Positions 39,395 through 41,383 of a stretch of 43,633 nucleotides of DNA are shown piece after piece. The DNA lies in IMG/VR virus record IMGVR_UViG_2563366881_000003; one strand, written 5' to 3'. A program made the translations under genes and the position numbers. The stretch's first letter is position 1. The number at the start of each line of letters is the position of its first letter. The notes under the pieces are model-generated. The model did not search any database, was not told the DNA's origin, and saw nothing but the letters and a program-made list of their open reading frames with translations. This DNA is from a virus (Duplodnaviria > Heunggongvirae > Uroviricota > Caudoviricetes).

Positions 39395-41383
39395 ATGACA
39401 GACATTACAGCCAATGTTGTAGTGAGTATGCCTTCGCAACTCTTCACTATGGCTCGTTCTTTTAAAGCCGTAGCCAATGGCAAAATTTATATCGGTAAAA
39501 TTGATACTGACCCGGTAAACCCTGAAAACCAGATTCAGGTTTATGTGGAGAACGAAGACGGCTCTCACGTTCCTGTTCCGCAACCAATCATCATTAACGC
39601 CGCTGGGTATCCGGTATATAACGGACAGATTGCCAAGTTCGTAACTGTGCAAGGCCATTCTATGGCTGTTTATGATGCGTATGGTTCGCAGCAGTTCTAT
39701 TTTCCGAATGTGCTAAAGTATGACCCGGATCAGTTAAGAACCGAACTATCTATTAATGGTGGTGCCGGATTAGTTGGCGCAGGAGTTATATCTAGAGGTA
39801 ATGATAAGTTTTCAATAATGCAGGGCAGGACATCAGAGTATTTAAATGATGGTCTTACATACGGTATTGGCATCATTATTAATGATTCAATTGTTGGTTC
39901 TGTTCCTAATGCAAGCACAGCTAAAATAAACTATATCATGATTAATGATGACAGAATTAATGCTGTTGATGACCAATCGGCAGGCACAAAAGTTGACGGG
40001 TTTTTAGTTCACCATAATTTCGGATATCAAGAAGCAAAAGGTGGCAGACACGCCGGAGAGTTTGTTTTAACTCACGAAGCAGCCACAAGCTTAGAAAATC
40101 CTGATAGAAATTATGTTGGTGTTGTTGGTCTTGCGGTTTCACAAAATGGTGATGGTGGAACGATATCATCATCACCTGGTACATTCAAAGGAGCATATTT
40201 TGGCGGAAATATGTATGGACGCCTGGATTCTGCTGCGGTTGGAGTTTATAACGTTACAGGGTGTGAGTTTAATGTTTCCGCGTTAGTAGGTTCATCTGTA
40301 TGGTATCGATCAGGTATTCAGATTGTCGGTGGTGGTGATGTTCGAGGTACTGCTGTAGATACTGGTATTGCCTTATCAAACCTTTCTACTTCAACCGTTT
40401 GCTGGAAAAACGCTATTCGCATAGGCAACATGAATGGGGGGCACGCCCTAGCAGAAGATAGTAAAATACTTGTTGCATTTACAAATGTGCCATCCATAAC
40501 ATCAGGATTCGAGATACCAAAATGCTCATCAATGATATTGATGTCAGGTGACGTTACTTTACAAAATAGTAAATTGAATATCGCATCTGTTGGCTCATCT
40601 ATTGAACTTGGTAGCACAACAGATTCCGGTGTTTCATATATTGACTTTCACTCAAGCGGAAATAATGTTGATAACGATGGAAGGATTTTCTGTTCTGGTG
40701 GTTCTGAAGATTCTGGTGATGGGACTATTGGATTTAATTCTTCAATTATTCAACTTAACTCAAAAACAGAAATAGTCATGGGGTCTGGCATTAGACCATC
40801 TCTTGACAACACCTATGATTATGGAACAGCTTCCAAAAGAGGAAGAACAGCGTATTTTGGTACCGGGTCAATTAATACATCTGACTCTCGCCATAAACCA
40901 ATCAAAGAAAAAATACCAGAATATATTCTTGACGCGTGGTCAGAAGTAGACTGGGGGACATGGTTTAAATTTGATGACGCAATAGCGATAAAAGGAGAAG
41001 ATGGTGCGAGATGGCACTTTGGACTGATTGCGCAGCGTGTTGAAAAAGTTTTTTCATCACATGGAATAGATGGATTTAAGCTTGGCTTGCTATGTTATGA
41101 CTCATGGGATGACGTTTACGTTGATGTGCAGACAAATATAGGGGAGGTGGTAAAAAAAACAAGAGAAACGAGCGATGGAAATACAGAAGAATATACTGAA
41201 CCTGCCCCTGCAAAATTTAAAAAGGTTCTTGATACACCAGCTGGTGAAAGATACGGAATTCGTTATGAGGAGGCCTTGTCTCTCGAGGCTGCATTACAAC
41301 GGCGTAACTACTTTCGTTTGCTGGAGAAACAAAAAGAGTTAGTTATGCGTATTGAGAAAATAGAGGGTATACTTGGAATGTAA
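39395..41383 (+). CDS. Tailspike: P22 gp9-like N-terminal head-binding domain, distinct receptor-binding body, C-terminal intramolecular-chaperone (peptidase S74-like) domain
   Basis: First ~115 aa match recalled P22 tailspike ([11 protein letters not shown]...[18 protein letters not shown]...VLKYDPDQ); C-terminal SDSRHK...[16 protein letters not shown] resembles autoproteolytic chaperone domains. Confidence 0.8.

Follow-up and report, generated by a model that had tools for sequence, protein, structure and literature searches.

A predicted modular tailspike of a P22-like prophage, with a gp9-type head-binding domain, an uncharacterised receptor-binding body and an S74 intramolecular chaperone

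Introduction

What does the tailspike of a P22-like phage recognise, and how does it mature, when only its first hundred or so residues resemble the tailspike of P22? The question is raised by the final gene of a prophage contained in IMG/VR virus record IMGVR_UViG_2563366881_000003 (Duplodnaviria; Heunggongvirae; Uroviricota; Caudoviricetes), a stretch of 43,633 nucleotides that we refer to as the window. The gene lies directly ahead of the right attachment site, attR, and a sequence-only reading had described its product as a chimeric tailspike ending in an intramolecular chaperone.

We consider it very probable that the protein is a homotrimeric receptor-binding tailspike of an intact P22-like prophage, composed of three exchangeable modules: an attachment domain, an uncharacterised body and a chaperone predicted to cleave itself off. 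This is the explanation that best accounts for the whole. When the complete protein was searched against Pfam, Head_binding was found at amino acids (aa) 1-113 and Peptidase_S74 at aa 496-557, with nothing significant between them. Coordinates of all features are collected in Table 1.

The adaptor and its junction with the body

The attachment end is of P22 type. In comparisons with the Protein Data Bank (PDB), the head-binding domain gave E=3.4e-65 to Sf6 gp14 (7sg7) and E=7e-51 to P22 gp9 (8tvr), with identities over aa 1-117 of 90% and 76%, respectively; the N-terminal PF09008 domain and the synteny described below place the protein in the P22-like tailspike family. The Pfam match stops at aa 113 and the alignments to PDB tailspikes (those of P22, Sf6 and others) all end at aa 117-119, in agreement with the earlier statement that only the first ~115 residues match P22 gp9. 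Past aa ~119, no alignment to bodies of P22, Sf6 or HK620 type was found; the protein has no P22-type endorhamnosidase body, P22-like specificity is therefore ruled out, and the adaptor family is not defined by the body that follows it. The proposal that specificity differs from that of P22 was thus soundly drawn from sequence, the body being without any similarity to the P22 endorhamnosidase. The guanine-plus-cytosine content is 0.442 in the head-binding domain, 0.40 in the body and chaperone, and 0.46 in the prophage.

The change of module falls within aa 114-124, which we interpret as the recombination boundary at which the adaptor meets the receptor-binding module. Megablast matches in 1,154 other Escherichia coli records end at nucleotides 344-369 of the tailspike gene, near-identity to the tailspike of the P22-like prophage CUS-3 ends after YDPDQLR (aa ~116), and homology to the tailspike of EcoPhCCP1, an unrelated siphovirus, begins at L114-R115 and continues at 58% identity, which upholds the description of the protein as chimeric. 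The conserved junction linker suggests a recombination hotspot for swapping receptor-binding modules. Many homologues with otherwise unrelated adaptors have in common the junction motif LR(Q/T)(E/D)L(A/S)xxGG(A)xL(V/I)G.

Homologues carry Head_binding, T7 tail, Tail_spike_N or tail-collar adaptors ahead of the body and S74 domain, and among 72 representatives of the body family, which average ~30% identity to the query, S74 is present in 48 and Head_binding in only two. Because the same pair occurs behind such varied adaptors, the body and S74 domain appear to behave as a single mobile module. It has long been established that P22-like phages have unrelated versions of the portion past residue ~115 (PMC2629481; PMC10408124), and chimeric tailspikes are the rule in these phages (PMC2629481). 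The swap seen here is accordingly of a known type and its mechanism is not new.

The chaperone domain and the predicted cleavage site

Several independent lines of evidence agree that aa 496-662 are a bona fide intramolecular chaperone (S74) domain. The profile search that had been suggested returned PF13884 at 41.4 bits, against a cut-off of 22 (E=1.8e-10), with aa 496-557 spanning positions 1-57 of the 58-position profile, and phmmer gave E=6.5e-21 to K1F endosialidase (3gw6), 1e-16 to a neck-appendage protein (3gud) and 7e-11 to T5 pb1 (4uw8). With the first of these matches so far above its cut-off and the 3gw6 match at that E-value, the features are not due to chance. The best sequence match of the C-terminal region is PDB 9vvr. 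Compared with the released chaperone 3gud, the domain is 41% identical and superposes at 2.1 Å, and it comprises the mixed alpha/beta domain, beta-hairpin tentacle and C-terminal coiled-coil helix of the S74 or C-terminal intramolecular chaperone domain (CIMCD) fold.

The phmmer alignment to 3gw6 extends upstream into the stalk, starting at aa 422. Around the putative scissile bond, T495-S496-D-S-R-H-K501 aligns column for column with T-A(S911A)-N-G-E-R-K916 of endoNF in 3gw6, so that S496 and K501 correspond to endoNF S911 and K916; together with the profile score, this bears out the earlier assignment of an S74-type chaperone to the C-terminus. The released chain 3gud begins with SDERHK, which likewise lines up with SDSRHK. 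The sequence-only reading had placed this motif in the last ~150 aa: it is indeed present, at aa 496-501, but at 167 aa from the C-terminus, so the distance given was slightly short.

Five residues, D471, R482, T495, S496 and K501, stand at the same intervals (-25, -14, -1, 0, +5) as D1239, R1250, T1263, S1264 and K1269 of T5 pb1, and among 54 homologues they are conserved in 45, 44, 53, 51 and 52, respectively. In the mechanism proposed for pb1, the Arg of a neighbouring chain sits between the Asp and the Thr that precedes the scissile Ser, and the Lys activates the Ser; as the Arg must come from a neighbouring chain, cleavage requires a correctly formed triple beta-helix (PMC4690869). By alignment, S496 is the predicted nucleophile and K501 the predicted general base, and cleavage at T495-S496 is predicted to yield a mature chain of 52.1 kDa and a released chaperone of 19.3 kDa.

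The receptor-binding body

The region between adaptor and chaperone had been called Gly/Ser/Asn-rich, and rightly: aa 115-495 contain 15.0% Gly, 12.1% Ser and 7.6% Asn, against 6.1%, 5.3% and 7.0% in the head-binding domain. An exhaustive phmmer search of representatives at 50% identity retrieved 694 clusters related to the body at E<=1e-3, 292 at <=1e-10 and 67 at <=1e-30. This family is widespread in uncultured phages and prophages, and it has neither a Pfam model nor a solved structure. Among 50,697 sequenced phage genomes, the body was found over at least 80% of its length in only five, those of EcoPhCCP1 and four Pseudomonas syringae phages (Drael01, Draal01, Draal02 and Draal03). Each of the Pseudomonas phages has a ~30% identical protein with body and S74, listed only as ‘hypothetical protein’. 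By homology, these proteins could be re-annotated as tailspike or tail-fibre receptor-binding proteins.

Searches with the body itself gave little. Pfam returned no family except for a sub-threshold match at the stalk end, a profile of 22 sequences retrieved 0 PDB chains at E<=10, and the fold search with models of the body matched no known fold. PHROGs gave only a weak, uninformative tail-fibre match over the last part, NCBIfam only a match at noise level, and hydrophobicity autocorrelation no clear repeat periodicity. A pectate-lyase-like right-handed beta-helix depolymerase (PF12708/PF13229) was considered and set aside, neither profile nor fold search having pointed to one.

Two AlphaFold2 (AF2) monomer models of the body, built from 54 and 110 sequences, gave results that agree. 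Residues ~48-265 of the model (protein aa ~162-379) have predicted local distance difference test (pLDDT) values of 57-91 and zero intrachain beta-bridges. The deeper alignment of 110 sequences did not improve the model (pLDDT 77.9), residues 48-265 still being devoid of intrachain secondary structure; aa ~380-448 form a small beta-rich element that is confident in the AF2 models. The stalk served as an internal control: in the second model, its aa 449-495, at block-mean pLDDT ~67-94, are likewise modelled without intrachain secondary structure. Because the body shares this signature with the endosialidase-homologous stalk, much of it may be an intertwined trimer, as opposed to the usual single-chain right-handed beta-helix. 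Counting against this interpretation, in a few homologues the shared core is immediately preceded by a pectate-lyase-like N-cap.

Across the 72 representatives, R218, E291 and D322 are invariant and D186, K199, H219, D237, Y240, D253 (70/72) and N293 nearly so. The persistence of the charged cluster R218, E291 and D322, with D253, D237, Y240, K199 and D186, across representatives so diverged suggests an active site. There is a smaller chance that aa ~162-421 represent a structurally new class of phage receptor-binding or depolymerase domain, perhaps an intertwined triple-stranded trimer with a catalytic constellation of its own (R218, E291, D322, D253, D237 and Y240).

Relationship to characterised tailspikes

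The closest architectural precedent is the tailspike of CUS-3 (siaK1, ABQ88383), a P22-like prophage of E. coli K1 RS218, which has the same three-part plan and, as noted above, an N-terminus near-identical up to aa ~116. It likewise ends in an endosialidase-type stalk and S74 domain (33% identity over aa 430-658, with the motif TSDGTLK), and its gene occupies the same genomic position, after ant. The combination of N-terminal adaptor and C-terminal chaperone has therefore already been characterised in CUS-3, and the architecture is not new. The bodies differ: that of CUS-3 is a GH58 endosialidase beta-propeller of ~600 aa for the K1 polysialic acid capsule, whereas the one described here has ~300 aa of unrelated sequence. 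An endosialidase (GH58) identity, prompted by S74 and a weak End_tail_spike match, was rejected for this reason and for the absence of the propeller and barrel domains; End_beta_propel and End_beta_barrel gave no Pfam match with the whole protein at E<=1 or with the body at E<=10, and of the stalk profile no more than the final ~48 residues are matched, at a weak score.

The closest relative among sequenced phages is the tail spike of the Kagunavirus-like siphovirus EcoPhCCP1 (XHQ01510), to which the 58% identity extends over aa 114-630, rising to 70% in the body core, and which has the same Ser-x4-Lys motif, in the form TSNEDLK. It has another adaptor, one that fixes the spike to the tip of a siphovirus tail; in P0003, which represents its cluster, this adaptor is of Tail_spike_N/PF18668 type. 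The gene lies downstream of that for a J-like protein, in the slot for a glycan-targeting tailspike that BASEL describes for Kagunavirus-like siphoviruses (PMC11990801). The literature on EcoPhCCP1 names no receptor (PMC12919940).

Other relatives share one end of the protein only. K1F endosialidase (3gw6), 3gud and T5 pb1 (4uw8) have the chaperone, but their passengers (respectively the propeller of an endosialidase, the beta-helix of an appendage and the bullet domain of pb1) are unrelated to the body. P22 gp9 and Sf6 gp14 share the head-binding domain and the role, as six spikes on a P22-type tail hub, but their bodies are single-chain right-handed beta-helix endorhamnosidases without S74.

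Prophage context

The lambda att core, GCTTTTTTATACTAA, is found in exact copy at 1331-1345 and 41813-41827 (chance expectation 0.01), and the two copies bound a prophage of ~40.5 kb between ybhC and ybhB, at attB-lambda. A complete P22-type virion module is encoded within it: small and large terminase, portal, scaffold, coat, hub proteins (among them the adaptor Ad3, which is gp4-like, and the gp10-like Hc3), a needle with a knob and ejection proteins. From gene content and a lambda-type integrase, the prophage appears to combine a P22-like virion module with a lambda integration module. Immediately upstream of the tailspike gene is a complete P22-type immI region, mnt-arc-sar-ant, itself preceded by the ejection genes; by this synteny, the tailspike gene occupies the place where gene 9 is canonically found, in a functional-looking prophage. 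A strong terminator-like hairpin (ACCCAGC-TTCG-GCTGGGT) stands between ant and the tailspike gene, so that expression of the latter would need read-through from the late operon or antitermination.

DNA adjoining attR resembles lambda P-arm sequence. Two small open reading frames (ORFs) separate the last ejection gene from mnt. A lipobox (LSGC) is present in one of them, and the N-terminus of the other resembles a signal sequence. Located at the P22 sieA position, both are moron candidates that may have surface-modifying or exclusion functions.

Table 1. Positions of the tailspike gene, its modules and key residues, and of neighbouring features in the window
Feature	Position	Strand	Basis or remark
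Integrase gene, Int	1419-2489	-	lambda-type, with arm-binding domain
Lambda cIII thermoregulator RNA element	7415-7473	-	Rfam RF01804, 88.5 bits; early-left region
Tail needle gene	31471-32424	+	C-terminal knob domain phrog_1030, a needle feature of Sf6 type, not P22 type
Small ORF	37127-37429	+	no Pfam match; between last ejection gene and mnt
Small ORF	37447-37836	-	no Pfam match; between last ejection gene and mnt
mnt	37814-38071	-	immI region
arc	38162-38323	+	immI region
sar antisense RNA	38324-38391	-	Rfam RF00262, 92.3 bits; between arc and ant
ant	38392-39294	+	immI region
Terminator-like hairpin	39313-39330	+	7-bp stem with 5 GC pairs, then a run of seven T; between ant and tailspike gene
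Tailspike gene	39395-41383	+	ORF list; ATG start, 662 aa plus stop
Head-binding (virion-attachment) domain, aa 1-113	39395-39733	+	PF09008, E=4.6e-67, full profile 1-113/113
Module junction/linker, aa 114-124	39734-39766	+	end of CUS-3 identity, start of EcoPhCCP1 homology, megablast
Receptor-binding body, aa 115-421	39737-40657	+	Gly/Ser/Asn-rich, uncharacterised family
R218	40046-40048	+	invariant, 72/72
E291	40265-40267	+	invariant, 72/72
D322	40358-40360	+	invariant, 72/72
C-terminal stalk, aa 422-495	40658-40879	+	homologous to triple-beta-helix stalk end of endosialidase
D471 (cleavage mechanism)	40805-40807	+	
R482 (cleavage mechanism)	40838-40840	+	
Predicted autoproteolytic site T495-S496, motif T-S-D-S-R-H-K	40877-40897	+	alignment with 3gw6 and 3gud
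Intramolecular chaperone (Peptidase_S74), aa 496-662	40880-41380	+	predicted release after trimer folding, 19.3 kDa

Alternative explanations

Several observations weigh against the explanation favoured here. No relationship of the body to glycoside hydrolase, lyase or esterase families was detectable by Pfam, PDB profile or fold search, so the argument for enzymatic activity is drawn from the conservation pattern alone; the monomer models of this region reach only moderate confidence, and no known fold matches them; and the match of aa 448-495 to positions 113-160 of PF12219 (End_tail_spike) is weak and sub-threshold (E=0.085), although the same family scores above threshold in homologues P0003 and P0004. 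The L-shaped fibre protein of T5, pb1, moreover possesses this chaperone and binds without being an enzyme (PMC4690869). The absence of any match to an enzyme family, the example of pb1 and the failure of the fold search to detect a right-handed beta-helix would suit a body that is a non-enzymatic adhesin, binding a glycan or protein receptor reversibly, as pb1 does, and depolymerising nothing. We regard such an adhesin as possible but doubtful. A binding surface that determines specificity is expected to vary, whereas R218, E291, D322 and, in all but two representatives, D253 are conserved. To our knowledge, all characterised P22-like podoviruses, namely P22, Sf6, HK620 and CUS-3, use enzymatic spikes (see also PMC10408124). 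Because the invariant cluster looks like an active site, we think, with moderate confidence, that the spike is more likely to be an enzyme than purely a binder.

The chaperone and the gene itself also admit other interpretations. The S74 domain might escape autoproteolysis and remain for good at the distal end of the mature spike, capping the structure or providing an additional binding module; this is very unlikely given that all five residues of the mechanism are present at canonical spacing, that the domain so closely resembles the released chaperone 3gud in sequence and structure, and that characterised members with an intact Ser/Lys dyad all release the domain (PMC4690869). Alternatively, the gene could be a relic of a defective prophage that is not used for infectious particles, and the presence of the full-length gene in just one of 5,426 complete E. 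coli genomes would fit that view. We nevertheless judge it quite improbable. The att cores are intact, an integrase is present, the set of packaging, head, tail-hub, needle and ejection genes is complete, and 121 sequences fall into the protein's cluster at 90% identity. The ORF is intact as well, and its codons differ from those of the 98.8% identical allele in NZ_CP098187 (annotated ‘phage tailspike protein’) by 16 synonymous and six non-synonymous changes; judged from this comparison with the only near-identical allele, the gene appears to be under purifying selection.

Proposed assembly and function

For a three-module tailspike of an intact prophage, the following sequence of events may be envisaged. 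The gp9-type head-binding domain would dock the spike onto the gp4/gp10 tail hub of the same prophage. The horizontally acquired body (aa ~115-495) would end in a triple-beta-helix stalk of endosialidase type; its most likely ligand is a polysaccharide of the host surface, an O-antigen or capsule that would differ from the P22 receptor, and it probably cleaves this polysaccharide. During folding, we infer, three S74 chaperone domains (aa 496-662) come together as a trimer that serves as the template for the intertwined stalk at the C-terminal end. With the stalk correctly formed, R482 of the neighbouring chain, lying between D471 and T495, would complete the active site; K501 would then activate S496, the T495-S496 bond would be cut, and the 19-kDa chaperone would leave. 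The predicted end product is a kinetically stable mature spike of 52 kDa per chain.

Significance

The chaperone and the chimeric nature of the protein merely confirm established principles of tailspike modularity, and the residual novelty lies in the uncharacterised body family. Solving the structure of the trimer or finding its substrate would provide an annotation for several hundred tail-protein clusters in one step, and could add a new depolymerase scaffold, with uses in serotyping and against capsules and biofilms. The practical value is in host-range prediction and enzyme discovery, as it is this spike that would define the E. coli surface glycan recognised by this temperate phage.
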